This document shows positions 47,398-64,000 of a stretch of DNA of 64,000 nt, piece by piece (positions within the stretch are counted from its first letter, which is position 1; each line of letters begins with the position of its first letter). The position numbers were made by a program, and so were the translations under genes. Source of the stretch: an uncultured Calditrichaceae bacterium. Lineage in GTDB: Bacteria; Calditrichota; Calditrichia; RBG-13-44-9. The notes below the pieces were generated by a model. The model saw nothing but the letters and a program-made list of their open reading frames with translations, did not search any database and was not told where the DNA came from. The stretch is from positions 2,925 to 66,924 of the forward strand of contig CAYVKM010000009.1 of the NCBI GenBank assembly GCA_964452045.1, written 5' to 3'.

Positions 47398-50226
47398 TTA
47401 TTCCTTGATTTGGTTTATTTTATACTCATCTGCCCACTGAATAATATCCTGATGGAATCTGGCTTCGATAAATTGAGTACCCAAAATTTCATCCTGCATA
47501 TTTTCTTTCATTTTTTTAAAAAAAGTTATCGTCTTTTTCAGGGCCGGTAAAAATTTCCCATCATTTCTTGAAGCATGATAAAGACGAACGGCCTCACAAT
47601 TTAATAAATACTGTATTTGAGGTAAATTCCATTTTTGGGCAATTTTCTGGCCGGACCTGAATGACCTTTCTGCATCCTGATATTTTTTTTCAGATATATT
47701 TATTTTGGTGAGTAAATAATTTGCTGCGGCCTGGTATCGGGGTAGATTTTCCGACTTCTTTTTGATCAAACTGATTACACTCCGAAGATGATCTGCCCGA
47801 TTAACGGCGAAAAGCCAGGCACCGAGATAAAAAAGATAATTCAAATGATCTATTAAATTTTGCGACAGGTTCACTGCTTTTTTGGCATCCCGCAAAAATT
47901 TACGGGATTTATCATTCCGCATATTCTGCAATTCATAGTATGATAAATACAAATTCGACAAGAGGAGGATTTCCCTTGCTTTCTCCCTGGATGCCCAGGC
48001 AAAAGCCTGCTGTAAATACTCATAGGCCCTTAACATCCCATGTGCCAGTAAATATATATGTCCCAAATGAAGTTTTATCTCATATTGCTGCATCTGATAG
48101 TCAAATTGAAAACAAATTTCCAATCCCTGCTCCAGTGCCATTTTAGCCTCTCCGTAGCGGGCCTGTTCTTTAAACAACATGCCCAGCTGAATCAGTGTCT
48201 GGACACGCAGACTGGGTCTGTGTTGAACATAGAGATTTTTACCTTCCCTTCTCATTAAACTGATCGCCAACTGCCATTTTCCGAATTGGCTGTAGGTCTC
48301 TGTAAAATAGAGAGCAAGTTGAAAATGTATTTTCGGTTCATAAACCCGCAACAGATTGCGGCGAAGTTGAATACACAGCTTTAACGACTCCGGATATTTT
48401 TTTTCCAGCATATACAGTTTTATCAGGTCTAACAGTATTCCATCCAGATGTTCCGGTTTTTTGTTCAATTGCAACAACAGATCATAAATCTTCAGATTTA
48501 ATTTGATAAAATTTTCCTGATCATTTTTTAATAACTGTTTTAATTTTTTGTAGACTCTCAGAATATCTTCCGCCTGTTTTGCCTTCTGGTAGTAATTTAT
48601 GGCTTCTCGATAATTTCTACTGGCGTATTCAAAATGTCCAAGATTCGATTCAATGTCACCGGTGAATTCAACACACCTACCTTTGGAAGAAAAATCGCAA
48701 TATTTCTTGATTTGGGATTCTCTTATCAGATATCGTGCTTCCAGATATGCATCCATGGCAATAAGGGACTCCGCCATTTTCAGGTTAACTTCCACCCATT
48801 TTTGATGGGCTTCCCCTGCCGGTTCATTTTTCGTCTTTTCCAATAACAACGACCTTTGCCGTTTAAGAATCTCAAAAGCATTGTCAAAGGCACCTATGCG
48901 TAAATAGATATCACTCAATTTCCCAAGAATCCATTCAATATCCTTTATCTGATCTGAATTGAGATCCCACATCCTCACCAGAAAATACAGCCTATCCGCA
49001 GCCTGGGAGAACTTGTTCTGCTCCATCAACCATATTGCTTCCGCCCGGGCTATCTCAATGGCATTTTCTAATTTATCGATATCATACAAAAGGTGGGAAA
49101 TCTGATAGTTTCCCGATATTTTTCCGGTGTTGATTAAGCGGGAAACGTTTACCAGAATTTTCTCCAATTTTTCAACCGGTATATTTGTCCGTAACCAGTT
49201 TTCCCACTCTCGGAAATCAATACTAATAGCTGTCTGACCACCGAATACAGAAATTTTTCTGATAAAACCAGCATCCTCCCAGATTCTTAATATATCTCTG
49301 GGAAGCTTTAAATCTTTACAGATCACCTGTAGATCCGATTCGAGAATCGGATTTTCCAGCTGGGCAATGAATCCCAGCAAGGTCAGGGCGCTTTCATTCA
49401 TCCGACTGGTAGCAATTTGGAAAATTTGATCCCAATCTCCGGAAATTTTAATTTTCTTCAACTTCTGGATATTAAGCACTTCATCATCGGTACTCTCCAG
49501 CACGGATTTGTAAATCGTATTTGTTAAAAATCTGATTTTTAGCGGAATGCCAGCTGTTTTTAAATAGAGATGATTGGTAATAAGCCGCGCATTTAAAGGG
49601 CTGGTTTGGTAAAATTCCTGAATACATTTTTCGGTGGTTTGAATTGAAAGTTTTTCAAGAATAAAACGTTTACAGGGACCAAATTCGCGAAAGAAGGGAC
49701 CCGCTTCATCATAGGTAAATATAGTCTGGATAGGCAGGTAATTAAATTTATCAATAAACCTTTCCATCTTATCAATCTGAAAGCTGTCCGCATTCTGGAT
49801 ATTTTCAAAAATAAAGGTCAGGATATTTTTTTCTCCCAGATGATTCAAAAATTGAGAAAAAATTTCCTCGTACCAATCCGATTCATCGACTTGAAATTGG
49901 GGCAATTTTGCCAATTTGTTCTTTATATAAACTCGGGAGCCTTTACTAAACTTCTTAAGAAATATTCTGAACTCCGAATTCAGTAAGGTTTTGTTTTGCT
50001 GAAGAAATTCAAATATGATATCCTGCGGTTCCTGAACATTTTTCGCCAGATTAACTCTGGTAACGATAAAAACGTTTTTCTGCATCCGGGTTAAAAGAAA
50101 ATCCACGAAGGCGGACTTTCCGGCTCCCTTGCCACCTTCAATCAACACTTTCCTTCCGGGCGCCTGCACCGGTTGTCGGGCGAATTCAATCGCATTTTCC
50201 ATCAGACTGTCTTCAAACCAATGCAT
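47398..50226 (-). CDS. Large P-loop NTPase (STAND/AAA_16-like) with C-terminal TPR-like helical repeats
   Basis: Walker A GGKGAGKS, Walker-B-like FIFENIQNAD, KTAGIPL (GxP), then helical repeats (LG.IY...G...A patterns). Confidence 0.7.
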   Translation of the reverse strand: MHWFEDSLMENAIEFARQPVQAPGRKVLIEGGKGAGKSAFVDFLLTRMQKNVFIVTRVNLAKNVQEPQDIIFEFLQQNKTLLNSEFRIFLKKFSKGSRVYIKNKLAKLPQFQVDESDWYEEIFSQFLNHLGEKNILTFIFENIQNADSFQIDKMERFIDKFNYLPIQTIFTYDEAGPFFREFGPCKRFILEKLSIQTTEKCIQEFYQTSPLNARLITNHLYLKTAGIPLKIRFLTNTIYKSVLESTDDEVLNIQKLKKIKISGDWDQIFQIATSRMNESALTLLGFIAQLENPILESDLQVICKDLKLPRDILRIWEDAGFIRKISVFGGQTAISIDFREWENWLRTNIPVEKLEKILVNVSRLINTGKISGNYQISHLLYDIDKLENAIEIARAEAIWLMEQNKFSQAADRLYFLVRMWDLNSDQIKDIEWILGKLSDIYLRIGAFDNAFEILKRQRSLLLEKTKNEPAGEAHQKWVEVNLKMAESLIAMDAYLEARYLIRESQIKKYCDFSSKGRCVEFTGDIESNLGHFEYASRNYREAINYYQKAKQAEDILRVYKKLKQLLKNDQENFIKLNLKIYDLLLQLNKKPEHLDGILLDLIKLYMLEKKYPESLKLCIQLRRNLLRVYEPKIHFQLALYFTETYSQFGKWQLAISLMRREGKNLYVQHRPSLRVQTLIQLGMLFKEQARYGEAKMALEQGLEICFQFDYQMQQYEIKLHLGHIYLLAHGMLRAYEYLQQAFAWASREKAREILLLSNLYLSYYELQNMRNDKSRKFLRDAKKAVNLSQNLIDHLNYLFYLGAWLFAVNRADHLRSVISLIKKKSENLPRYQAAANYLLTKINISEKKYQDAERSFRSGQKIAQKWNLPQIQYLLNCEAVRLYHASRNDGKFLPALKKTITFFKKMKENMQDEILGTQFIEARFHQDIIQWADEYKINQIKE

Positions 50227-50368
50227 GTAACCGCTTTTTCTCCGATACTACTATTTTGTGGGTGATTAAAACCTTAAAAATTTATAGAAAATTAACTTTT
50301 GTGAAATCTATTTTTTCTGATTAGTAAAAGGCTTAACCAAATTGTTAAAGACACCTTCTGCCAGACAA

Positions 50369-51772
50369 TTAATCGATCTCTTCCATTACAGCCGTAAAAT
50401 GTCGCAGAAAAGGAGGCTCGTAAATCAGTTTCAATCCTTTTAAAGACTGTTTTTTATCCCGAATTTTAACCATTGCTTCAGCTACATATTCAAGATGTGA
50501 ACTGGTGTAGACTCGACGCGGAATAGCCAACCTGACCAATTCCAGTTCAGGATATTTCCACTGGCCGGTATTCGGATCCTTTGCAGCAAACATCAGACTA
50601 CCAATTTCCACCACCCGGATTCCGGCCTCCCGATACATCGCCACTGTGAGTGCCTGGCCGGGAAATTTGGATTGGGGAATATGGGGCAAGAATCGCTTGG
50701 CATCAATATAGACTGCGTGTCCTCCGATGGGTTTTACAATCGGGATTCCAGCCTCAGAAATCATATTTGCCAAATAAGCCGTATGTTGAATCCGGTACTG
50801 CAGATAGTCCTCGTGTAAAACATCCCGTAAACCGCGGGCTATCGCCTCCAGATCACGACCGGCTAATCCTCCGTAGGTGGGAAAACCTTCCTGAAGTATC
50901 AGTAAATTTTGCAGCTTTTGAAATAAATCCCCATCCCTCAGTGCAATAAATCCACCGATATTGACCATTGCATCTTTCTTGGCACTCACCCAACATCCAT
51001 CTGCGTAAGAAAACATTTCCTTTACAATTGAATGAATCGATTTATCAGCATATCCCTGTTCTCGCAGTTTAATAAAATAAGCATTCTCGGCAAATCGGGC
51101 AGCATCGATCAAAAGCTTTAGCTTATGCTTCTTACAAATTAGACTGATTTCTTTGATATTCTGTATGGATACCGGCTGTCCGCCACCACTATTATTCGTT
51201 ATGGTTAAAGCTACTAAGGGAATATTCTCTCTTCCATGTTCTTCGATGACCTTTTCCAATTTTTGGGGATCCATATTCCCCTTAAAGGGATGTTCCAGTT
51301 CGGGATCAAGACCCTCATCTATTACACAATCCAGAGCCACCGCACCTATAAATTCTATATTGGCCCGGGTTGTATCAAAATGAATATTGCTGGGAATAAC
51401 ATCTCCCTTTTTAGCCATTGTATGAAAGAGTATGTTTTCAGCAGCCCTTCCCTGATGCGTCGGGAGAATAAAATCAAAACCAAATATATCATTGACCGTT
51501 TCCTTCAAATGGTAAAAATTCCGGCATCCGGCATACGATTCATCTCCGGTCATTATTCCGGCCCACTGATTATCGCTCATGGCTGAAGTTCCGGAATCGG
51601 TTAACAAGTCAATAAAAATGGACTCTGCCGGCAGCTTGAATACATTAAATCCGGCCTCGCGGATCATATGGTCCCGTTCGGTCCGATCCAGAAGTTTAAC
51701 AGGTTCAACAACTTTAATGCGAAACGGCTCAATTGGTGATTTCATCCATAACCTCTTTTCAGACTTGTTCAT
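50369..51772 (-). CDS. tnaA: Tryptophanase
   Basis: EPFRIKVVE, DLLTDSGT, HQGRAAE, SAKKD (PLP Lys), GFPTYGGL, GGHA, RLAIPRRVY, LRHFTA (His, as in tryptophanase; tyrosine phenol-lyase has SGKKD/LRFFTA). Confidence 0.9.
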   Translation of the reverse strand: MNKSEKRLWMKSPIEPFRIKVVEPVKLLDRTERDHMIREAGFNVFKLPAESIFIDLLTDSGTSAMSDNQWAGIMTGDESYAGCRNFYHLKETVNDIFGFDFILPTHQGRAAENILFHTMAKKGDVIPSNIHFDTTRANIEFIGAVALDCVIDEGLDPELEHPFKGNMDPQKLEKVIEEHGRENIPLVALTITNNSGGGQPVSIQNIKEISLICKKHKLKLLIDAARFAENAYFIKLREQGYADKSIHSIVKEMFSYADGCWVSAKKDAMVNIGGFIALRDGDLFQKLQNLLILQEGFPTYGGLAGRDLEAIARGLRDVLHEDYLQYRIQHTAYLANMISEAGIPIVKPIGGHAVYIDAKRFLPHIPQSKFPGQALTVAMYREAGIRVVEIGSLMFAAKDPNTGQWKYPELELVRLAIPRRVYTSSHLEYVAEAMVKIRDKKQSLKGLKLIYEPPFLRHFTAVMEEID

Positions 51773-51808
51773 TAACTTTTGGTAAGCTTAAGGAATTAAC
51801 CATTCGAT

Positions 51809-52174
51809 TTACAACAGGTTCTTTATCAGATTTTGAAATTTTTCAATTGTAAAAGGCTTGGCCAGAAACATTGCCCCGTCATCAACCAGTACTCTTTTCA
51901 GTTCATCAGAGACATTCAGGCCGCTGGTAAAGATCGCTTTTCCCCGAAAATCCGGATTATGTTCAACGATATCCTTATAGAGCTGAAGCCCAGTTTTATC
52001 GGGCAGGGTAAGATCAATAATAAAATAGTCAAATTTATTTTGTTGCATTGTTTTGATTGCCTTTTCCGCATTTTCAGCAATCTGACCCTTTGCGCCAAAA
52101 ACTTCGATCATATTCAAAATGATTGCTGACAGATCGGATTCATCTTCTATTATTAAGAAATTTTTTAATTCCAT
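51809..52174 (-). CDS. Single-domain response regulator (REC)
   Basis: LIIEDE, IIDLTLPD, FTSG, FLAKPF. Confidence 0.9.
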   Translation of the reverse strand: MELKNFLIIEDESDLSAIILNMIEVFGAKGQIAENAEKAIKTMQQNKFDYFIIDLTLPDKTGLQLYKDIVEHNPDFRGKAIFTSGLNVSDELKRVLVDDGAMFLAKPFTIEKFQNLIKNLL

Positions 52175-52340
52175 GGTAATTATACCTCAGTATTCCCGCG
52201 AATTTGATTCTCAAAAGACCACTATATCCGTATTAATAAAATAATAAAAAACTTCTGATTTTCCATAGGAATATTCATTTAGGATACACCGTTTCCTGAA
52301 AGCAGAAATTAGATATCCGTCAAAGAGTGAGTAAAATGTC

Positions 52341-52397
52341 AAAAAAATAAAAACCGGACAGCGACCTTTTTAAATTTCAGAATCACTACCCGGTTTT
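52341..52397 (-). terminator. Probable intrinsic terminator after tatA
   Basis: Minus strand AAAACCGGGTAGTGAT...GTCGCTGTCCGGTTTT (with G-U pairs) followed by TATTTTTTT. Confidence 0.55.
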
Positions 52398-52516
52398 AAA
52401 ATGGGAAGAATTTCAAAATTTGAACGAAGAAAAAATCCTTTCCGTAATCTATGTTTCGTTAATCTACTAACTGTTCAATCTGAAAAAGTAAAATCGAATT
52501 CTCTTTATGAATACCG

Positions 52517-52765
52517 TTAACCTGCTAAATCGTCCTTTGCAGATGATTTCTCTTCTTTCTTGTTCCCGGTGCCAACTTCGCTCTTCGGCACATTTTTGTC
52601 GTCTTTGGTGACATCAAGATCATCTTTTATGTTCTGAGTGGCATTCTTAAACTCATTTATCGAACGACCCAGAGACTTTGCCAATTCCGGTAAGCGTTTG
52701 GCGCCAAACAGGATCAGGATAATCAAAAAGATAACAATTAATTCAGGAGGACCAATTCCAAACAT
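52517..52765 (-). CDS. tatA: Twin-arginine translocase TatA/E
   Basis: MFGIGPPEL.VI..IILILFGAKRLPELAKSLGRSINEFK. Confidence 0.95.
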   Translation of the reverse strand: MFGIGPPELIVIFLIILILFGAKRLPELAKSLGRSINEFKNATQNIKDDLDVTKDDKNVPKSEVGTGNKKEEKSSAKDDLAG

Positions 52766-52841
52766 ATTTACTTCCTTTTTATTAATTACAACTAAAATTA
52801 ACTGAAAAAAACCAAATTAGCTATATATTTTTATGAAATCT

Positions 52842-53105
52842 TTACTGCGTCCATCTCAGGAAATAAGCGGCTATTCCAATCCCCAAAACACCGATCACAT
52901 TTATTTTAACGCTAAAACCAAGGGTAAAGGTCAGAATAATAAGATTGAGTGTTGCCGGACCGACGCTAAATACCGCTGCTCTCAGGAAAAATTCTTTCAC
53001 CACACCTACCGGTAAAATTAATGCTAATACCTCCCCCAGCGCGCTTCCAACAAAAGCTCCCAGTAAAATGATGACTAGTATCCAGCCTAAACTTTTTTTG
53101 CGCAT
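52842..53105 (-). CDS. DUF4321 family membrane protein
   Basis: LGA.VGS.LGE...LP.GVVK.FFL...L.L.ILTFTLG...K.N. Confidence 0.82.
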   Translation of the reverse strand: MRKKSLGWILVIILLGAFVGSALGEVLALILPVGVVKEFFLRAAVFSVGPATLNLIILTFTLGFSVKINVIGVLGIGIAAYFLRWTQ

Positions 53106-53125
53106 GGAGTATCTCTCCCAAAAAA

Positions 53126-53806
53126 TTAATTTTTTAAAGACTCAAATATGTATCGCCCGTCATCGGATCCAAGTAACAATTCCATTGCCCGTTCCGGATG
53201 AGGCATCATTCCCAGAACATTTCCCTGTTTGTTGATAATCCCGGCAATATTATCCAGCGATCCATTGGGATTAGCTTCCGGTTTTGTTTCTCCATATTGA
53301 TCTACGTATCGAAAAATTATTTGTTGATTATCCTGGAGTTCATTTAGACCTTTCTGGTCAATAAAATAATTGCCTTCCCCATGGGCGATGGGAATTTTTA
53401 GAATACGTTTTGATTCCAAAGATCTGGTAAAATGAGTATTTGAATTTTCTGTCCGGATAAAAACATGACGACAGACAAAGCGTAAATCCTGGTTTCTCTT
53501 CAAAGCGCCAGGTAAAAGCCCGCATTCAGAAAGAATCTGAAAGCCGTTGCATATGCCCAGTACAGGTTTGCCATTTCCGGCAAAACGGATAACCTCATTC
53601 ATGATCGGGGAAAATCTGGCCACAGCTCCAGCCCTGAGATAATCTCCATAAGAAAAACCACCGGGCAGGACAACCGCATCATAACCATCCAGAGAGACAT
53701 CCTGATGCCAGATGAAATCTACCTGAAATCCCATCACTTTTTTCAGGGCATAGAACATATCATGATCACAATTTGATCCGGGAAAAACAACCACGGCGTA
53801 TTTCAA
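53126..53806 (-). CDS. purQ: FGAM synthase glutaminase subunit
   Basis: [44 protein letters not shown]. Confidence 0.97.
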
Positions 53807-53807
53807 T

Positions 53808-54053
53808 TTATTCCCCTGTTATTTCATAGGTAAAATCTTCGATTACCGGATTAGCCAGCAACTTCCGACAAGCTTCCTCAATTTTTTGAGCAGCAATCGC
53901 TTTATCAGATTCTGCTATCTCCAGTTCAATGAGCTTTCCGATACGAACATTCTGGATATTTTTAAATCCGAGGTGATCCAGAGCGTTATTAACCGTTTTT
54001 CCCTGTGGATCGAGAATTCCCTTTTTTAATCTCACATTAATCACTGCTTTCAT
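53808..54053 (-). CDS. purS: FGAM synthase subunit PurS
   Basis: [20 protein letters not shown]. Confidence 0.96.
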
Positions 54054-54790
54054 TCTTTCTTGTCCTTTGAACTTTTTTGATTAGCTGAATCCTGGTTTCT
54101 AAAAATAGCCCAGATCAAACCTACCGGCCCGGATAAAACATAAAGCGCGGACAGCGGGAAAAATGATTCCTGGGGGAAAATGGCTATCAGGAGAATCCCA
54201 GTTAACACCACTAAAAACTTACGACGATTCGAGGCGCTGCTCTGAAAGGTTAAATTCGGGAAAGTGGCAAATCGAAAGCCGGTGACCATCATAATTGACA
54301 CAGCAATAATAATAAATAGGAATACTTTTTCCCAGCGCAGATAACCCCAGATATTAAAATTAAAGATCACAAATGTTGAAATAGTGACTGCGGCTGCCGG
54401 AATGGGCAAACCTTCAAAAAATTCTTTATCGAATTTCTTTAACCGGACATTAAAACGAGCCAGACGGATGGATCCGAAAACAAGTGGTCCGAAGCTAATT
54501 AGGAGTCCGATCATTCCCCAGGATTTGAACGCTACGCTATAAACCAGGAAGGAAGTGGCAAAGCCAAATGATATAACATCCGCTAGCGAATCGTATTCCA
54601 CGCCAAACTGTGAGGAAGATTTGGTAAACCGGGCAACTTTGCCATCAATGGCATCCAACACTGCCGCTGCTACAATCAGCCATGATGCCTGAACAAATTT
54701 GGCATTGGTTGCCAAGATAACCGAAAAGTAACCACAAAACAGATTGGCCATGGTCAAGGCGCTTGGAACCCAGGTTGTTTTTACCTTCAC
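54050..54790 (-). CDS. pssA: CDP-diacylglycerol--serine O-phosphatidyltransferase
   Basis: DAIDGKVAR......FG.EYDSLAD.ISFG, RLARFN, F.GLPIP. Confidence 0.93.
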   Translation of the reverse strand: MKVKTTWVPSALTMANLFCGYFSVILATNAKFVQASWLIVAAAVLDAIDGKVARFTKSSSQFGVEYDSLADVISFGFATSFLVYSVAFKSWGMIGLLISFGPLVFGSIRLARFNVRLKKFDKEFFEGLPIPAAAVTISTFVIFNFNIWGYLRWEKVFLFIIIAVSIMMVTGFRFATFPNLTFQSSASNRRKFLVVLTGILLIAIFPQESFFPLSALYVLSGPVGLIWAIFRNQDSANQKSSKDKKE

Positions 54791-55440
54791 TTAAATTCCC
54801 CCAGAATTGTTTCGCCACCTTTTACTTTATCTCCTAAACTCACCTTCAAATCCACTGTGGCCGGATCGAAGTAAACATCCACTCTCGACCCATAGCGGAT
54901 CATGCCCATGCGGTCGCCTGCCGTTACCTGATGTCCCTCCCGCAAAGTGCAGACAATGCGTCTGGCAATGATACCGGCAATCTGGGTAAACATGACTTTC
55001 CTTAGTGAGCTATCCACAATACCAATTGCCGTTTGTTCGTTATCCTCAGACGCCTTTTCATTAAAAGCCGGCAGAAATGACCCTTTATTATAGCGAAAAT
55101 ATTCTACTTTTCCGGAAACCGGGACCCGGTTGACATGCACGTTGAAAACAGACAAAAATATACTGATCCTTTTGGTCTGGGCCTTAAAAAATTCATTTTC
55201 TATTACTTCGGCGATTTGGATGACTTTACCATCCGCCGGGGATAATATCGCATTCGGATTCTGCGGTATCTTTCTATCCGGATCGCGGAAAAAGAACAAA
55301 TTAAAGATGCTAAAAACCCCAATAATTAGTCCCAATACGGATAATACCGGATTTTTTAGGATATAAGCTAAAACCACAAAAATCCCAAAAATTATCCAGC
55401 TAGCCAGAACCAAAACTATGCCAAATTTAGTTATAGGCAT
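54787..55440 (-). CDS. psd: Phosphatidylserine decarboxylase proenzyme
   Basis: FFRDPDR, SPADG, IFLSVFNVHVNR, NE, QIAG.IARRI, YGSRVD self-cleavage motif. Confidence 0.93.
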   Translation of the reverse strand: MPITKFGIVLVLASWIIFGIFVVLAYILKNPVLSVLGLIIGVFSIFNLFFFRDPDRKIPQNPNAILSPADGKVIQIAEVIENEFFKAQTKRISIFLSVFNVHVNRVPVSGKVEYFRYNKGSFLPAFNEKASEDNEQTAIGIVDSSLRKVMFTQIAGIIARRIVCTLREGHQVTAGDRMGMIRYGSRVDVYFDPATVDLKVSLGDKVKGGETILGEFK

Positions 55441-55449
55441 TTCAAAACC

Positions 55450-56151
55450 TTACTTTAATAAAATATCATGTAATTTCGGATAAACCTTTTTGGCTGATTC
55501 AGGTGTTATCTGATACATTTTTTTATCCAGCTTGCTGTCATCCTGCTGTGCCCAGACAACAAAAGTATCCGGGGAGATTTCATCGCCCAAAATAACCTGA
55601 TTTCCGGTTTTGCCAAATTCCAAAGTGAAATTGGCCAGGACTAACTGTTTCCTCTGGAAGAAGGATTTTAGAACGGCATTTACTTTGGTTGCAATCCGTT
55701 GAATAGTATTCATATCATTCCGGTCACAGAGTTCCAAAGCATAAGCATGATACTCATTAATCAACGGATTTTTTAATTTCGCATTTTTCAAATACATTTC
55801 AATTACCGGAGTATTCAGCATTGCTCCTTCCTTCAATCCCAAACGCTTTGCCAGCGATTCACTGGCCAGATTCCAGATGGTTAATTGAATGGGAATCATT
55901 TCCAGTTTCTTGACCAGAATGCTTTTCTCATCGAGTTTTTTAATATAATGGGTTGGAACATTATAACTGGCCAGGTATTCGAAAATAAGCGAGGTAATAT
56001 CTAAATTAATTGTTTTTTTACCCTTCAGAGTCACTTTTTTCGTACCGGTGACCGGTAAGTTATCCAGAAATTCCATCACCAGTTGTTCTTCATGATCAGT
56101 CCGGTATAATTTTTTGGTTTGTCCTTCTGCAAGTACATCTTGAATTTTCAA
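55450..56151 (-). CDS. purC: SAICAR synthetase (PurC)-fold protein with degenerate active site
   Basis: Overall PurC pattern (PTH, VKKLEMIP, SL.KRLG..EG, P.IN, LEFG, LGDEISPD) and position after purB; TTG start with GGAGG; many conserved residues substituted (see findings). Confidence 0.75.
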   Translation of the reverse strand: MKIQDVLAEGQTKKLYRTDHEEQLVMEFLDNLPVTGTKKVTLKGKKTINLDITSLIFEYLASYNVPTHYIKKLDEKSILVKKLEMIPIQLTIWNLASESLAKRLGLKEGAMLNTPVIEMYLKNAKLKNPLINEYHAYALELCDRNDMNTIQRIATKVNAVLKSFFQRKQLVLANFTLEFGKTGNQVILGDEISPDTFVVWAQQDDSKLDKKMYQITPESAKKVYPKLHDILLK

Positions 56152-56165
56152 GAGAGTCCTCCGGT

Positions 56166-57461
56166 TTAAATAAGATTTAGCTTTTTAAATACATAATTTA
56201 CATTTTTCAGGCGGTTTCCCAAATTACAAATCAGATCAACTTCTTCCGGGGTTAAGAGTTTTTTAATTTCCTTATCCGCCATAAGGTTATCCTTAAATTC
56301 AGTTTTATTTTCCCATACCTTCATAGCATTCTGCTGTACCAGCCGGTAAGCCTCCTCTCGGCTCAATCCTTTCTCCACCAATTTTAACAGCAATGGCTGG
56401 GAATAGATCAATCCATGGGTCAAATTTAAATTTCTTATCATATTTTCGGGATGAACAACCATTCCTTTAATCACCTGAATTGTCTTATAAAGCATATAAT
56501 ACAGAGTTATCGTCGCATCCGGAATAATAACCCGTTCCACCGAAGAATGAGAAATGTCCCTTTCGTGCCATAATGCTATATTTTCCATGGCGGTGGTTGC
56601 CCAGCCCCTGAGTAAACGGGCCATTCCACTGATTCGTTCGGATATAATCGGATTTTTTTTGTGTGGCATGGCGGAAGATCCCTTTTGCCCCTTTCCAAAA
56701 GGCTCTTCTGCTTCGAGTACCTCAGTTTTCTGCAAATGCCGGAGCTCCACTGCAATTTTCTCCAGGTTGGCACCAATGACTGCCAGCGTATTCATATAGT
56801 AGGCATGCCGGTCCCGTTGAATAATCTGAGTGGATATTGGGGCCGGCTTCAAATTCAATTTTTTACAGACATATTCCTCCACACTCGGATCCAAATGATC
56901 GTATGTCCCCACCGCTCCCGATATTTGCCCATAGGAAATTAACTCCAGTGCATTTTCCAGCTGGACAATGCTTCTCAGGGTGTCGCTGTACCACAGGGCT
57001 AATTTTAATCCAAAGGTAACGGGTTCCGCATGGATACCATGGGTTCTGCCTACCATGATGGTATTTTTGTAAAGAACTGCTTTTTCGCTTAAAATTATCT
57101 TTAAGTCATTCAATTTTTTCAGAATCAATTCCCCGGCCTGTCGCATCTGAACGGCAAGTGTGGTATCCAGAATGTCCGATGAGGTCATGCCAAAATGGAT
57201 ATAGCGGGAATTCGGCCCAACATATTCGGCTACATTGGTCAGGAAGGCAATAACATCATGCTGAACGGTTTCTTCGATTTCCAAAATCCGTTTCACTTCA
57301 AAATCAGCCTTTTTTCGAATTTCCCGAACAGCTTTTTTAGGAATAATACCCAATTCAGCCTGGGCTTCACAGGCAAGGATCTCTATCTCCAACCAGATGG
57401 CAAATTTATTCTGGTCATCCCAAATTTTTCCAATTTCCGGCAAAGTATACCGTTCAATCAT
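56166..57461 (-). CDS. purB: Adenylosuccinate lyase
   Basis: MIERY, HDVIAF, HFGMTSSD, GRTHGIHAEP, SGAVG, GSSAMPHKKNP, LWHERDISHSS. Confidence 0.97.
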   Translation of the reverse strand: MIERYTLPEIGKIWDDQNKFAIWLEIEILACEAQAELGIIPKKAVREIRKKADFEVKRILEIEETVQHDVIAFLTNVAEYVGPNSRYIHFGMTSSDILDTTLAVQMRQAGELILKKLNDLKIILSEKAVLYKNTIMVGRTHGIHAEPVTFGLKLALWYSDTLRSIVQLENALELISYGQISGAVGTYDHLDPSVEEYVCKKLNLKPAPISTQIIQRDRHAYYMNTLAVIGANLEKIAVELRHLQKTEVLEAEEPFGKGQKGSSAMPHKKNPIISERISGMARLLRGWATTAMENIALWHERDISHSSVERVIIPDATITLYYMLYKTIQVIKGMVVHPENMIRNLNLTHGLIYSQPLLLKLVEKGLSREEAYRLVQQNAMKVWENKTEFKDNLMADKEIKKLLTPEEVDLICNLGNRLKNVNYVFKKLNLI

Positions 57462-58681
57462 TTTTGCGAGCCGCCTTCTAATAATCTCATATTGATTTTT
57501 TTCTCTTCCTTATTCCGTAGGATAATTAAATCCAGCTTATCTCCCACCTGCAAATCCGTATCGGTGAGAATTGAGATCAAACTTTCCGAATCGGTTACCC
57601 TATGGTTATTTACCTTGATGATAACATCTTCAGTCGCCAGTCCGGCTATTGCTGCGGAACTTCCGGGATCGACCTGAGTGATAATAACCCCGTCTTTGGT
57701 TTTCAGACCCAGTGCTTTGGTTATCACCGGATTCAGATCCTGTACCCTGAATCCCAGCCAGTAATTACGGTTAACTCCGCCCTTCTGCTTAATCTGATCG
57801 ATTATCCTCAAAATGCGGTTTATCGGAATGGCAAATCCAATTCCAACTGATCCTTCTTCATAGCGGCTTCCGGTGAATATAAACGTATTCATCCCTATCA
57901 CCTGCCCCATGGCATTCACCAGCGGACCACCACTATTTCCGTGATTGATGGCGGCATCGGTCTGGATCATGTCCATGTAGATTCGGCCTTCCGGGACTCT
58001 GCCCCAATCCCGGTTAATCGCACTGATTACCCCAACTGTAACTGTTGGCTGATCATTCAACTGGAAAAGTCCGAAAGGATTTCCCAGGGCAATGGCCCAT
58101 TCACCGACTATCAGATCATCCGAATTGCCGGTCGGCAGATAGGGAAAATCATTTCCGGTAATTTTAAGCAGGGAAATATCCGATACCTTATCTTTTCCCA
58201 CCAGTTCTGCGTTATGTTTCTCTCCCCCTGGCAAAGTTACAATAATCTCAGTGCCTTCCCCCACCACATGGTCGTTGGTGACAATATATCCCTCTGGTGA
58301 AATGATAAATCCACTTCCCAGACTCTGCAATTTTTGTTCATATACCCGGTCTTTGAACAACTCGGGAAACAACTGTTGCCAGTATGGATCCGCCATATAG
58401 AATGGACTGCGCTGAGTGATTTTTACGATCTCAATCACATTAATACCAACCACTGCCGGACTGGCCGCTGCCGCGGCTTTGGTAATGGCATTCTGTCGTG
58501 ATGTGGAAATGGTTTCGTTTCTTTGTAACAGGGAATCGGAAACGGTTTGCGCATTGGCGGACTTCAGGAAAAGCGAATCATCACCGGAAGCGCGGTTATC
58601 ATTATTTTGCTGGCATCTCGGTATGAAAGCCATAAATAGTAATAAAGCAAATGGAGTGAAAATTTTTAAAAACACTTTCAA
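57458..58681 (-). CDS. HtrA/DegP-family serine protease, one PDZ domain
   Basis: GSGFIIS, TNDHVV (His), DISLLK (Asp), QTDAAINHGNSGGPL (Ser), PDZ LGFRVQ. Confidence 0.93.
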   Translation of the reverse strand: MKVFLKIFTPFALLLFMAFIPRCQQNNDNRASGDDSLFLKSANAQTVSDSLLQRNETISTSRQNAITKAAAAASPAVVGINVIEIVKITQRSPFYMADPYWQQLFPELFKDRVYEQKLQSLGSGFIISPEGYIVTNDHVVGEGTEIIVTLPGGEKHNAELVGKDKVSDISLLKITGNDFPYLPTGNSDDLIVGEWAIALGNPFGLFQLNDQPTVTVGVISAINRDWGRVPEGRIYMDMIQTDAAINHGNSGGPLVNAMGQVIGMNTFIFTGSRYEEGSVGIGFAIPINRILRIIDQIKQKGGVNRNYWLGFRVQDLNPVITKALGLKTKDGVIITQVDPGSSAAIAGLATEDVIIKVNNHRVTDSESLISILTDTDLQVGDKLDLIILRNKEEKKINMRLLEGGSQK

Positions 58682-58697
58682 TTTTTCTCCAAAATGA

Positions 58698-59435
58698 TTA
58701 ATTGTAAAAAATTTCTTCCAGAAAAAGGCCGCGAGCCGGAGCAGCTACTCCAGCCTCAGTCCGGTCCTTCGATTTAAAAATCTGTTTGAACTGTTGCATG
58801 GTGAATCTACCACGGGAGACATCCATCATTGTGCCAACCAAGCCTCGAACCATACCATGTAAAAACCGGTTGGCCGAAATCCGATAAATCAAAAACTGAT
58901 TTTCCTGTCGCCAGACAGATTCATGCACAGTACATACTTTGTGTTCCGCTTGGACTTGATATTTAACAAAGGCACCAAAATCGTGTTCACCAATGAGCAG
59001 TGCAGCCATTTCCTGCAATAAATCAAAATTGATTTTATGAAAATACTCCCAGCTGTATTTCCGATAGATTGCTGTCCGTTCCAGACTCACAAAATATTGA
59101 TAAATGCGCTTCCTCGCATCAAACCGGGCATTAAAATCCAATGGGACCTGATCAACTTTTTTCACCACAATATCCAGAGGTAGATACGAATTAATGCCTT
59201 TCATGATTTTCGATAAGGCAATTTTTCTAGCCAATACGAAGTTGACCACCTGTCCCCGGGCATGAACCCCGGTATCGGTCCTTCCTGCTGCTGTCGTTGT
59301 CACTTTTTCTTGCGTCATCTGTTGAATAGCACTCTCCAAAGTTTCCTGAATACTATTTGCATTTTTCTGTCGTTGCCAACCGTGGTAATTTGTGCCATCG
59401 TATTCGATAACCAGCCGGATATTTCGTCTATCCAT
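58698..59435 (-). CDS. truA: tRNA pseudouridine(38-40) synthase
   Basis: YDGTNYHGWQ, AGRTDTGVHA.GQ, FNARF.A, HDF.AF, FLHGMVR, APARGLFL. Confidence 0.96.
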   Translation of the reverse strand: MDRRNIRLVIEYDGTNYHGWQRQKNANSIQETLESAIQQMTQEKVTTTAAGRTDTGVHARGQVVNFVLARKIALSKIMKGINSYLPLDIVVKKVDQVPLDFNARFDARKRIYQYFVSLERTAIYRKYSWEYFHKINFDLLQEMAALLIGEHDFGAFVKYQVQAEHKVCTVHESVWRQENQFLIYRISANRFLHGMVRGLVGTMMDVSRGRFTMQQFKQIFKSKDRTEAGVAAPARGLFLEEIFYN

Positions 59436-59745
59436 AAAGCTCTGAGTATGAAAATGAACTTCGATGCAGGAAATACTTTAGAATTTTATCTATACCCGAA
59501 ATAAAATACTGGACAAGGAAAATTGCTTCAGACATTAAGAATATCCAAAATTATCCACAAATCACTAAAACATAATAAGACCGCAAAATATAATAAAAGT
59601 TCAACTTAAAACAAAATATAATAAATACCTTAAGAGATACCAAATCCTGGGGATTTGTATATCGCTTTCATTTTTTGAAATCGAAAAAAAAGAGGTTAAG
59701 TTTTAATTATTTGGGTAATGGTGGAGAATCGAACTCAAATCTGTT

Positions 59746-61005
59746 TTACTTCTGAGGCAAGACAATTCTTACCCAATCCACTTTGCGGCGGGTTGCCCTG
59801 GAGACGGTAAATTTGAATCCATCGAAGGTAAATGTTTCGTCCCTTTTAGGAATATGTCCAAGATAACTGAGAATAAAACCGGCTAATGTCTCATAATTTC
59901 CTTCCGGTAGTTCAATGCCCAATTCTTCCTTAAGCTGCTCAGGTTCAATCCGGGTATTCACACTATAAAGATTTTCACCTAAAACCTTTATCAAAGCAGA
60001 GGCTTCATCATATTCGTCGATAATCTCTCCTACCAGCTCTTCAATTAAATCTTCGGCTGTGACCAACCCGGCAGTACCACCATATTCGTCAACTACAATT
60101 GCAATGGTGGTATTCTCCTTGCGGAATTCTCTTAATAATTGTAAAGTGCGCTTGGTTTCGGGCACAAACATAATGTTTCTGATAATCTCTTTAAGGGATT
60201 GAGGCTGCAGAAACAGGTCTTTCAGGAAGACCACCCCAATGATATTATCCAGATTTTCCCGAAATACCGGTATTTTGGTAAAACCTGATTTTTGGAAGAC
60301 GGTTATCAAATCATCAAGTGAAGTATTATCCTCCACCGCTATAATTTCCGTTCTGGGTATCTGGGCTTCCCTAACCCGTAAAGAACGAAAATTAAATAAT
60401 CTGGCCAGAATTTTACTTTCCTCTGCATCCAGATCTGCATATCTTCTGCTCTCACGGATAAGTATTTCGATGTCTTTCTTGGAGAAAAAATCGGTAAGTT
60501 CAGTATCGGGATATTTTAAAAGTTTTAAGACAAACCGGCTGATATGATTGACGATCCAGATAATCGGCTGAAAGAGGTAATAAAACAATTGCAGGAGATA
60601 AGCCACTTTTCTTACGATAAAATCCGCCAAGCTTCGAAACAGGGTTTTGGGGATGATTTCTCCGAACAGGATGGTAACACTGGTGATCAACAACCAGGTA
60701 ATCTTTTCATCGAAATAGTGATGCAGATAAATCGTGGCATAGGAAGCAAATGCGACATTGGCGATATTATTTCCAATTAGCGTGGTATATATAAATCTCT
60801 CCGGCTTCAGCAGAAACCGGAAGATAATCTCCCCCGCCCGACTTTTTTGTCTGCGCCAAAGTTCAATACGGACCCGGTTTACCGAAAGAAAAGCGGTTTC
60901 CGTTCCTGAAAAATAAAAGGTAAGAACCAGAGAAACAAGAATAATAATTTCTATCAATGAAATAATTCCGTCTTTTAAAAATCTCTTTTCATATTTTGGG
61001 TTCAA
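59746..61005 (-). CDS. Hemolysin/CNNM (DUF21-CBS-CorC) family protein
   Basis: FSGTETAF, TLIGNNIAN, FGEIIPK, PRTEI, VDEYGGTAGLVT.EDLIEELVGEI.DEYD, YETLAG; exact start uncertain. Confidence 0.92.
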   Translation of the reverse strand: MNPKYEKRFLKDGIISLIEIIILVSLVLTFYFSGTETAFLSVNRVRIELWRRQKSRAGEIIFRFLLKPERFIYTTLIGNNIANVAFASYATIYLHHYFDEKITWLLITSVTILFGEIIPKTLFRSLADFIVRKVAYLLQLFYYLFQPIIWIVNHISRFVLKLLKYPDTELTDFFSKKDIEILIRESRRYADLDAEESKILARLFNFRSLRVREAQIPRTEIIAVEDNTSLDDLITVFQKSGFTKIPVFRENLDNIIGVVFLKDLFLQPQSLKEIIRNIMFVPETKRTLQLLREFRKENTTIAIVVDEYGGTAGLVTAEDLIEELVGEIIDEYDEASALIKVLGENLYSVNTRIEPEQLKEELGIELPEGNYETLAGFILSYLGHIPKRDETFTFDGFKFTVSRATRRKVDWVRIVLPQK

Positions 61006-61108
61006 AAATTACATTAAAAAAACCCATAATACAAAATACATTTATTCACTGCATAGATCAGTAAAATTTTTTAATATTAGAGGAAATTTTTAAATGTGAG
61101 GCCAATAT

Positions 61109-63379
61109 ATGCGACTAGCAGGTATGCTTATTCTTTCCATTTTCCTAGTCCAATTTTCCTGTGCACCCAATTATTACATCGAATATGCTAAAATTCAGGG
61201 ATATAATTGGTTTGAGGTCACTTATCAGGGTGCACTTGCTCAGGACGATGTGAATAAGTGGAAAATCGAACCTGAAGTAAAAATTGAAAATGTCGAGATT
61301 TCCGAGAGTAAGGCAAAAATTAGAGTTTCCAAAAATTTCAAGTTAGATGAACATTATTATCTCCATACCGGGAAAAATAAATTTTTCCTAATACCGGATG
61401 GAATTTTAGATTCGCTTTACTCCGATAAACCGCTGGGATACCATATAGAAGGAAGTAATATTTATTTCAGGGTTTTTGCTCCTCGGGCAAAATGGGTAAA
61501 GATTCTACATTTCCGGGATGTCAGGGATAAGGATGGGGAATCATCTTTGATGACCCGGGATAAAGATGGCGTGTGGGAATTTACCACTTCTTCAGATTGG
61601 CAGGGCGATTTTTATGGTTATAAAGTCTGGGGACCAACCGGAAATGGCGATATATTTGATTCTACCATCGTCATTGCGGATCCATACAGCCCTGCAGTGG
61701 CGACGATCAACCATTATACCCATCCCGGAAAAACATTGATTCAAAAACCTTCAAAGAATAATTGGAAGGGAAATCGATGGCAAAAAATGGATTGGCGGGA
61801 TCTGATTATTTATGAGATGCATGTTCGCGATCTGACTGCTCATCCTTCATCCGGATTAAAGAAAGAAGACCGAGGGTATTATCGTAGCCTGCTGGAGAAG
61901 AATCAAAAAGGAGGCCTGACTTACATTAAATCCTTGGGTGTTAATGCCGTTGAACTCTTGCCGGCGCAGGATTTCGCCAATATCGAAGTGCCATACGAAG
62001 ATAAAGATGCCCCGGTTTACAATACCTGGAATCCATACGCCCGGAATCACTGGGGCTATATGACCAGTTATTTTTTCGCGCCGGAGTCTTACTATGCAGA
62101 TCACGGCAATATGGTTGAGGGAGATATAAATGGTGCAGATGGCTTGCAGATCAATGAATTTAAAGAAATGGTACAAGCTTTTCATCAAAATGGGATTGCT
62201 GTTTTGATGGACGTGGTTTATAACCATGTATCTCAGTACGATTACAACCCCCTCAAATATATCGATAAATTCTATTATTTCCGTCTGAATGATGATTGCA
62301 CATTTGAATCGGTCAGTGGATGTGGAAATGATTTCAAGACCGAAAGGCCAATGGCCCGGCGGCTGATTGTGGAAAGCGTTCTGCACTGGATAAATGAATA
62401 TCACGTGGACGGCTTCCGTTTTGATCTGGCAAAACTAATTGACTGGCAGACATGTGATGATATTTTGCAGGCCGCCCAAAAAGTAAATCCGCAGGTGGTT
62501 ATTATTGCCGAACCCTGGGGTGGCGGCTACGATCCCTATGGATTTTCCGATCATGGCTGGGCATCCTGGAATGACCAGATTCGTAATGGTGTTAAGGGTC
62601 AAAATCCGAATGACGGTCTAGGATTCATTTTTGGTGACTGGCAGGGAGATAACGATCGGAAATCACTGCAGCGGTATGTGATGGGTTCGCTCCGGGAGTT
62701 TGGTGGACAGTACCGCCAGACTACTCACTCGGTCAATTATCTGGCCTCGCATGATGACAATACCCTGGGGGATTTTATCCGCCTGGGGCTGCGAGAGGTC
62801 AGTGAGCAGGACAGTATTACCGATCTGGTCAAGAATGCTCAACTCTCTCCGCTAAATCTGAAAACGAATAAGCTGGCAGCAATATTTTTGCTCACTGTTC
62901 AGGGACCGGTAATGATTCATGAAGGGCAGGAATTTGCCCGGAGTAAAGTGATCGCCCCAACAGATGTTCCTGACAAAAATGTTGGACGGATAGACCATAA
63001 CAGCTATGACAAGGATAATCCTACCAACTGGTTAAATTTTGATTTTGCTGAAATGAACAGCGAGTTAGTGAATTACTACCGGGGATTAGTTGAAATGCGC
63101 AAGGCCCATTTGGCATTCCGGCATGCAAATCCGGAAAATTTCACCTTCCTAGATACTTCGGATTCTCTTTTTCTGGTTTATGAACTGAATTTTAATCGGA
63201 ATCATTACCTTGTCCTTTTGAATGGGAATCAATCAGTTTCGCAAAATTTTGAAATGCCGGAGGGCACCTGGGGGGTACTGGCAGACTGGGAGAAAGCCGG
63301 ATCTACGCCATATCGGGTGATATCTCGATCTGTTTTGGAGATTCCCCCCACTAGTGGTATGGTTTTGGTGAAAGAATGA
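61109..63379 (+). CDS. pulA: Pullulanase / type I debranching enzyme (GH13), probable lipoprotein
   Basis: Lipobox QFS-C; FRVFAP, ADPYS, IYEMHVRD, NHWGY, MDVVYNH, DGFRFDL (Asp), AEPW (Glu), SHDD (Asp), GQEF. Confidence 0.9.
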   Translation: MRLAGMLILSIFLVQFSCAPNYYIEYAKIQGYNWFEVTYQGALAQDDVNKWKIEPEVKIENVEISESKAKIRVSKNFKLDEHYYLHTGKNKFFLIPDGILDSLYSDKPLGYHIEGSNIYFRVFAPRAKWVKILHFRDVRDKDGESSLMTRDKDGVWEFTTSSDWQGDFYGYKVWGPTGNGDIFDSTIVIADPYSPAVATINHYTHPGKTLIQKPSKNNWKGNRWQKMDWRDLIIYEMHVRDLTAHPSSGLKKEDRGYYRSLLEKNQKGGLTYIKSLGVNAVELLPAQDFANIEVPYEDKDAPVYNTWNPYARNHWGYMTSYFFAPESYYADHGNMVEGDINGADGLQINEFKEMVQAFHQNGIAVLMDVVYNHVSQYDYNPLKYIDKFYYFRLNDDCTFESVSGCGNDFKTERPMARRLIVESVLHWINEYHVDGFRFDLAKLIDWQTCDDILQAAQKVNPQVVIIAEPWGGGYDPYGFSDHGWASWNDQIRNGVKGQNPNDGLGFIFGDWQGDNDRKSLQRYVMGSLREFGGQYRQTTHSVNYLASHDDNTLGDFIRLGLREVSEQDSITDLVKNAQLSPLNLKTNKLAAIFLLTVQGPVMIHEGQEFARSKVIAPTDVPDKNVGRIDHNSYDKDNPTNWLNFDFAEMNSELVNYYRGLVEMRKAHLAFRHANPENFTFLDTSDSLFLVYELNFNRNHYLVLLNGNQSVSQNFEMPEGTWGVLADWEKAGSTPYRVISRSVLEIPPTSGMVLVKE

Positions 63380-63492
63380 AAATGGGTGGTACTTCTTATC
63401 GGAGATAGTTGCAATATTTATCCCTGGGCCATTCCTCCACGCGGGGATAACTTCTCCCGCAGCTGTGGGATCGAAAAGACAGCCATTATTTG

Positions 63493-63573
63493 TGTCATAC
63501 CCGCATGCATAAAGCGGGTATCCATTTGTCTCATCCTTGGATTCTGGATCCCGGCTCTCCGGCCGGGATGACA
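63493..63573. repeat. Palindromic REP/RPE-like element, GTCAT.CCCGC type
   Basis: TGTCATACCCGC-ATGCATAAA-GCGGGTATCCA ... TGGATCCCGGC-TCTCCG-GCCGGGATGACA: terminal inverted repeats with two internal hairpins. Confidence 0.8.
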
Positions 63574-63581
63574 AAAGAGTA

Positions 63582-63712
63582 GTCATCGCCCCAAAGGGAC
63601 CACTTTGTGGCAAGCGAAGCGCGGCGATCTCGCTTGGTTAATTTTAGTAATATTCCTCCCTGAGTAAATCCCACACAAGGGGATTGCCACGGCCTCCTTG
63701 CCTCGCAAAAAC
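63582..63712. repeat. Second, degenerate palindromic element, GTCAT.GCGAG type
   Basis: GTCATCGC...GCAAGCGAAGCGCGGCGATCTC ... GGGATTGCCACGGCCTCCTTGCCTCGCAAAAAC. Confidence 0.65.
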
Positions 63713-63838
63713 AAAAAAAGCAGTTCTCACAGTAATTATAATCAATGCCACAAAAATTGATTTCAACTTTGCATTTTTCTCCATCTTCGTATTACTTTAT
63801 GAAAATTTCAAAACCAGAATTAAAAATCGGAGAGCTTT

Positions 63839-64000
63839 ATGGCAGATGATACCAAAGTAAAACAGGGCTTCACCTCATTTCCTTTCCTTTTCTGGCTGGT
63901 AGTTATTTTCGAATTCTTTGAACGCGGTTCCTATTACGGCATGATGAGTATCCTCTCTGTCTATATGACCGAACATCTCCACTTTGCCAAAGAAAGTGTG
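63839..64000 (+). CDS. POT/PTR-family (MFS) peptide transporter, N-terminal fragment (runs off window end)
   Basis: Manual translation MADDTKVKQGFTSFPFLFWLVVIFEFFERGSYYGMMSILSVYM...; ExxER..YYG motif; GGAGAG upstream. Not in ORF track. Confidence 0.85.
   Translation, partial: MADDTKVKQGFTSFPFLFWLVVIFEFFERGSYYGMMSILSVYMTEHLHFAKESV

Follow-up and report, generated by a model that had tools for sequence, protein, structure and literature searches.

The 64,000-nucleotide window analysed here, from an uncultured Calditrichaceae bacterium, contains a gene cluster in the order truA-htrA-purB-purC-psd-pssA-purS-purQ-DUF4321-tatA, in which purC encodes a degenerate short-type SAICAR synthetase that we call pseudo-PurC. 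Its gene (55450..56151, minus strand) has a TTG start and no internal stops and specifies 233 aa. A Shine-Dalgarno sequence, GGAGG (56158..56162, minus), lies 6 nt 5′ of the TTG within the 14-bp gap that follows the stop (56166) of the upstream adenylosuccinate lyase gene, purB (56166..57461, minus), in agreement with the full-length, well-initiated frame described in the initial annotation. On the downstream side, psd (phosphatidylserine decarboxylase; 54787..55440, minus) starts 9 bp past the pseudo-purC stop and is followed by pssA (phosphatidylserine synthase; 54050..54790, minus), purS (53808..54053, minus) and purQ (53126..53806, minus). Of these neighbors, purB is no longer at the locus in a number of lineages with a pseudo-purC, and purS is not needed for retention of pseudo-purC. 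A promoter and terminator scan returned chance-level counts (22 vs 19.9 and 9 vs 8.4), and the single RNA run, with a word share of 0.06, covered no useful part of the gene. Two features of the surroundings vary among relatives. A tryptophanase gene (NF009709 above cut-off; window 50369-52174), with an ORF resembling a single-domain response regulator in front of it, is found 3′ of the cluster in several genomes of family f1, and a transaldolase-like gene that lies between truA and htrA in most relatives (L040, L076, L091 and L111, for example) is absent here (window 58681-58698) and forms a tandem duplicate in many genomes of family f6.

Relative to the E. coli K-12 sequence (PurC of NC_000913.3), pseudo-PurC shows the replacements K11Q, E90Q, R94W, D129N, D175N, K177T, R199V and R215Q (E. 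coli numbering), exactly as first read from the sequence, together with the loss of D125. K13, S100, K123, E179, D191, D196 and K211 are retained, and the five of these originally named (K13, K123, E179, D191 and D196) were likewise all found in place. Within the window, Q89 and W93 (55873..55887, minus) stand for the Mg ligand E90 and the CAIR contact R94, N128 (55768..55770, minus) for the Mg ligand D129, N174 and T176 (55624..55632, minus) for D175 and K177, and V198 and Q214 (55510..55560, minus) for R199 and R215. According to PMC3261824, CAIR is contacted by R94, S100, D175, R199 and R215 and ADP by E179; S100 is the only one of the five CAIR contacts that pseudo-PurC retains. The same source assigns K11 and K13 to CAIR, whereas PMC9376930 puts the corresponding GKTK motif within the ATP site and describes Glu97 and Asp137 of human PAICS as bridging two Mg ions. 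Judged by motif spacing, these residues would correspond to E. coli E90 and D129, both of which are gone (Q89 and N128). The adenine-nucleotide site formed by K13, K123, E179 and D191 is complete, and with K11 changed to Q the nucleotide site is largely kept, in support of the proposal that part of it survives. Pseudo-PurC matches PF01259 with 173 bits against a cut-off of 20, and scores 152.1 bits against TIGR00081, below the cut-off of 189.9. Its predicted model (pLDDT 95.2) aligns with 2GQR, E. coli PurC, at Z 30.8 and rmsd 1.7 over 228 residues, and with 3NUA at Z 31.5. The names of homologue records present these dead proteins as active SAICAR synthetases, a systematic mis-annotation that our analysis flags.

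Throughout the order, catalytic ligands are almost entirely absent from the aligned copies (R94 and K177 in 0/35, R215 in 0/33, D129 and R199 in 1/35, E90 in 2/35 and D175 in 3/35), and nucleotide-site residues are almost always present (K13 in 33/33, D191 in 35/35, K123 in 33/35 and E179 in 31/35). Near-total ligand loss set against the retention of K13 and D191 in 35 aligned copies indicates that the pattern did not arise by chance. The E-to-Q and D-to-N changes that the initial annotation regarded as isosteric are real in this protein but are not conserved; at these columns the orthologues differ very widely, with a mean of 2.5 bits. One explanation for a retained Mg-ATP half is that the protein has become an ATP-dependent kinase or ligase acting on a different acceptor. 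The order-wide persistence of the nucleotide-site residues fits this idea, as does the R94 position (window 55873-55875), which is aromatic in all 35 order copies (W in 20, Y in 13, H in 2) and is W, Y or H again and again in independent dead lineages, including copies from the KSB1 phylum. Against it, the hypervariable acceptor site has not been re-specialized, the substitutions differ in each independent lineage, and ATP-site residues decay in G020, G022, G031, G034, much of family f4 and many distant copies. We consider a new ATP-dependent enzyme rather unlikely.

Analysis of substitution rates (Nei-Gojobori) demonstrated that the degenerate gene is under purifying selection. In nine of ten pairs from the order, dN/dS falls between 0.030 and 0.091 (one pair is saturated and three share genomes), and comparison of this genome with its congener gave 0.046 for pseudo-purC and 0.042 for purB. 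Degenerate pairs from other lineages gave 0.042-0.209 in 12 of 13 cases, and canonical pairs 0.007-0.036 in four cases and 0.146 in a fifth, in which a second copy is present. Frames are intact order-wide in copies 46-95% identical to the one described here. The prediction that syntenic orthologues would share the degeneration at dN/dS below 1 was borne out, since all 35 aligned copies are degenerate and dN/dS is 0.03-0.09; with ligands lost and the frame intact, these same values support the original view of a maintained pseudoenzyme. Neutral decay of a redundant gene, or continued SAICAR synthesis by an altered mechanism, might be suspected from the deletion of the gene in several lineages, from constraint weaker than in live copies (0.007-0.036 in four pairs), and from three genomes (G089, G136 and G214) in which only a dead copy was found. 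Yet the dN/dS of pseudo-purC equals that of purB, psd and pssA, which refutes neutral decay, and the intact frames, together with the loss of the two acids that bridge Mg and of every listed CAIR contact except S100, make either alternative highly improbable.

The initial annotation postulated that SAICAR is made by a second purC elsewhere, and a genome search located one. Besides pseudo-purC, the only PF01259 match in the genome is P0123, a 304-aa long-type PurC with canonical motifs encoded in a plsY-purC-gpsA cluster on contig C167 (L001:369-2930; counterparts in L004-L031). Judging from its motifs, this protein is likely responsible for SAICAR synthesis. Among 28 loci checked, genes of the P0123 type are adjoined by plsY and/or gpsA in all 27 that belong to the order. 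As far as gene names can be read from sequence, both purC copies sit in phospholipid gene clusters throughout the order. The short copy is present in 36 of 37 order genomes, 31 of which also have a second purC when fragments are counted. Across 86 genomes of the phylum, replacement PurCs are of the long type, PurC-PurE fusions, or a 345-370-aa type. The last of these is divergent (PF01259 E about 1e-25), serves as the replacement in families f4, f5 and f7, and is the only match in most f5 genomes (L070:1715-2743, L071:3657-4577, L101-L105). A fourth type, ∼270 aa long and with canonical ligands, occurs as a second copy in KSB1-phylum genomes (L272, L273) and lacks the surface patch described below. 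Outside the phylum, a second purC accompanies a degenerate copy in 12 of 13 genomes and a canonical copy in 11 of 30, kin not being independent in these counts. Judged on scores only, among 114 genomes from the KSB1 phylum, 22 of the 25 with a best score of E≤1e-82 have a single match; of the 87 remaining genomes that have any match, 75 have two or more. This assembly, 91.6% complete, has purS and purQ and no purL match; a congener has purL, and its absence here is probably an assembly gap. Catalytic residues have thus been lost from an intact, foldable ORF that is under purifying selection and whose reaction another gene likely supplies, and we infer that pseudo-PurC is an inactive pseudoenzyme with a non-catalytic role.

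Degeneration of this gene has occurred repeatedly. Within the phylum, the syntenic short purC retains the full set of seven tested ligands in just three genomes, G038, G076 and G077, each of which is without a second copy. It is degenerate, with differing substitutions, in families f1-f3, f4 and f6, is partly altered in G041, and has been cleanly deleted in G040, G049, G051-G053, G068, G073, G075 and G085. Sixteen of 18 syntenic copies from the KSB1 phylum, picked mostly for low score, are without three or more ligands, and PurC proteins of Kryptonia are degenerate as well. Parsimony on an 82-row tree of Psd+PssA+HtrA, from which 21 rows, mostly of the order, had been thinned out, required six changes; on a 73-row PurC tree with the catalytic and patch columns left out, it required at least three. 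A single clade of all dead copies was rejected (p-AU 0.021); monophyly restricted to dead copies from Calditrichota was not (p-AU 0.085). The same gene has therefore degenerated three to six times independently, in Calditrichota and in KSB1, usually beside a replacement purC.

What selection has preserved points to a predicted surface patch specific to this lineage group. It comprises Y59 and Y63 (codons 59-63; 55963..55977, minus), in helix 1, and a face of the long helix 144-166 that includes R152, K156, A159, K162, S163, R167 and K168 (codons 152-168; 55648..55698, minus), the latter segment being the best-conserved part of the dead copies. In the predicted model, residues 152, 156, 159, 163 and 167 share one face of the helix; Y59 and Y63 appear to adjoin it, with Y59 pairing with a small residue at 155 and L59 with L or F155. 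A set of 323 short PurCs was compared at Y59, Y63, R152, K156, A159, S163 and R167. Conservation of these residues is 84-100% across 194 dead copies and 78-100% across 51 live copies of the lineage, figures to be read with the caution that lineage sets were defined by Y/F63, which makes that one column circular, and that sequences were gathered with dead-copy queries, which favors patch-bearing proteins. Such conservation was not seen in 42 other live PurCs. In 108 further relatives, and likewise in solved homologues, the patch columns are variable and for the most part charged, a pattern suggestive of surface exposure; helix periodicity and this outgroup variability also place the patch, by prediction, outside the dimer interface. 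Site entropies within the order average 2.5 bits in the CAIR/aspartate site and 0.43 in the ADP site, and fall to 0.10 in the patch (protein median 1.24). Even in 18 very divergent dead copies, in which the ATP site often varies, K156, N158, R167 and R168 are invariant. The patch is carried by still-canonical copies and is older than the loss of the ligands.

Live copies have a bimodal distribution of patch scores. Of the dead copies, 196 of 202 reach at least five of seven, and the six without a patch show that dead PurCs can persist without it. Also lacking a patch is G038, the sole canonical copy of family f5, whose nine relatives have another purC type and zero short-type matches, with clean deletion of the short purC in the three loci examined. 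G038 sits just outside the patch clade and may have come in as a replacement instead of losing the patch by vertical descent, this being one contrast only.

Composition of the patch raises the possibility of a nucleic-acid-binding or nucleotide-sensing regulator, for which PyrR and B. subtilis PurR offer analogies, and in which the patch would bind RNA, DNA or a signalling nucleotide. It is rich in Arg, Lys and Tyr, and dead copies are more positively charged (median net charge +2; +6 for this protein) than the live copies of the lineage (median -2). PurC also appears as an unvalidated ppGpp binder in PMC10912719. Several observations weigh against regulation of this kind: zero Rfam elements were found in window 48000-64000, inspection by eye, with no formal motif search, revealed no leader common to the eight pur genes of the genome, and two small residues at the center of the patch, A159 and S163, are invariant, which suggests close packing on a protein. 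We judge it unlikely. The nucleotide sensor of the initial annotation is possible as such but would not be the core function, because some lineages have a decaying ATP site and still keep the patch.

A second proposal was that pseudo-PurC is a scaffold for the purine enzymes PurB and PurS/PurQ, to which PurE can be added. The gene lies between purB and purS/purQ across the order, and PurC is a central hub in bacterial two-hybrid networks of purine enzymes, as described in PMC10912719 and bioRxiv 10.1101/2025.07.15.664858. Evidence against the proposal comes from lineages in which native purine genes have been replaced. Family f6 and the KSB1-phylum genome G091 carry a foreign operon, purF-N-D-B-CE-H-Q-L-M-A-guaB. 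This operon, which includes a PurC-PurE fusion and a ∼1000-aa PurL, displaced the native pur genes (L201, L203, L204). Among genomes tested that keep a dead copy, native-type purB was not found in 5/5 (best matches 28-29% identity), standalone purS is found in 0/5, and PurE exists solely as the foreign fusion in 4/4; purH is single in the foreign-operon genomes, and their PurL is of the large foreign type. The dead copy nevertheless remains under selection in f6 (dN/dS 0.05-0.13) and in two KSB1-phylum genomes that likewise have a foreign pur operon and in which native purB, purS and purE were not found, and conversely it has been deleted from G085 despite the presence of purB, purS and purQ. 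Survival through the replacement of native purB, purS and purE argues against a PurB/PurSQ scaffold, and we regard a purinosome role as quite unlikely.

Two other candidate partners were rejected. DUF4321 (window 52842-53105), a small hydrophobic protein found in 61 of 86 phylum genomes and in 0/10 of family f5, is kept in G049, G051-G053 and G085, where pseudo-purC is deleted, and is missing from G044, G045 and G065, where pseudo-purC is kept. A native small PurL was set aside as the ∼740-aa AIRS_C protein reads, from sequence, as a cysteine desulfurase/SelD fusion, and f6 has just the foreign ∼1000-aa PurL. The 739-aa protein in question, by the same reading a cysteine desulfurase/selenocysteine lyase-SelD fusion, is encoded at C2:52113-54329 (minus; L207), and AIRS_C frames of similar length occur in G042, G044, G058 and G091.

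The tightest gene linkage is to the phospholipid genes psd and pssA, whose products the initial annotation had named as possible partners. Among 160 loci, some of which may represent one lineage sampled twice, psd is directly downstream in 145 of the 146 with room and pssA lies downstream within 1.4 kb in 127 of 127, compared with a native-like purB upstream in 112 of 141. In the exception, G201, psd is off the locus, with psd-family fragments elsewhere, and the dead copy stays; psd and pssA, for their part, persist in lineages that deleted pseudo-purC. The gene linkage in that suggestion holds, but linkage is not binding. No co-evolving columns common to three loss lineages were detected in Psd, PssA, PurB, HtrA, TatA or TruA. 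A complex prediction for two copies of pseudo-PurC and Psd residues 45-217 scored 0.02 (mark 0.32), a result that weighs neither way, and a Pfam scan of 25 longer PurC representatives revealed fusions with PurS, PurB, PurH and others and none with Psd.

Our preferred reading, which we hold to be probable rather than secure, is that pseudo-PurC is kept as a non-catalytic binding protein, a pseudoenzyme that preserves an older moonlighting role through the predicted patch. In this lineage group, the ancestral short-type enzyme would have combined catalysis with binding via the patch. Arrival of a non-orthologous purC, of which four types are seen, would then have relaxed selection on the CAIR/aspartate site, and the patch, mostly along with the ADP/ATP pocket, would have stayed under selection. 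Docking through the patch would involve a partner outside the native purine pathway, with adenine-nucleotide binding possibly acting as a modulator. Several observations run counter to a moonlighting role. Deletion of the gene in G040, G049, G051-G053 and G085, sister lineages of patch-bearing ones, makes the role dispensable; in addition, there are six patch-less dead copies and three genomes in which only a dead copy was found. As to the partner, PssA/Psd is our leading guess, and a tentative one; otherwise it may be an unlinked protein or a ligand. More speculatively still, and with considerable doubt, the ancestral PurC of Calditrichota, KSB1 and neighboring phyla could have been a nucleotide-sensitive partner of phosphatidylserine synthase/decarboxylase, which each takeover by a foreign purC stripped from enzyme to regulator. 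If true, this would connect a purine enzyme with the synthesis of membrane lipids in a way not recognized before.

Textbooks treat PurC as an enzyme with a single function. The repeated, independent survival of its dead orthologue, even after native purine genes have been replaced, points to a hidden second function, and comparison of live with dead copies narrows the candidate to about seven residues. The system thus offers a replicated natural case of subfunctionalization after gene displacement. A search of the ESM Atlas with the homologue P0008 returned ordinary PurC clusters alone, and the literature searched, which mostly excluded subscription journals, held no description of a dead PurC. 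We conclude that pseudo-PurC is a genuine pseudoenzyme form of PurC, undescribed in that literature, and that the predicted patch is a localized candidate for its second function.

Comparison with known systems places the protein among, and apart from, its relatives. It resembles short-type PurC (EC 6.3.2.6; PF01259, TIGR00081; structures 3NUA, 2GQR, 4FE2 and 2YWV) in length, fold and retention of the ADP site, and its orthologues at the syntenic position in G076, G077 and many KSB1 and LCP-89 genomes are canonical. Unlike short-type PurC it is without E90, R94, D129, D175, K177, R199 and R215 and falls below the TIGR00081 cut-off, and its Tyr/Arg/Lys patch is lineage-specific, the solved short-type homologues having variable charged residues there. 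Long-type PurC (yeast Ade1 1A48 and Mycobacterium abscessus 6YVQ), represented here by P0123, belongs to the same Pfam family and is only a distant relative, differing in its 304-aa length, canonical motifs and plsY-purC-gpsA setting. Second purC genes of Thermococcus, which the available part of PMC3261824 describes as truncated before R215 with other ligands conserved, are similarly purC-like genes suspected to be inactive; pseudo-purC, by contrast, is full length, and for the truncated genes no selection analysis or second function is described in that part of the source. A further parallel is with subfunctionalized pseudoenzymes, which share an intact fold, lost catalytic residues, purifying selection and an active counterpart elsewhere. 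What distinguishes pseudo-PurC from these is that its active counterpart came in as a replacement and is not an orthologue, and that it was the original orthologue that died, repeatedly.
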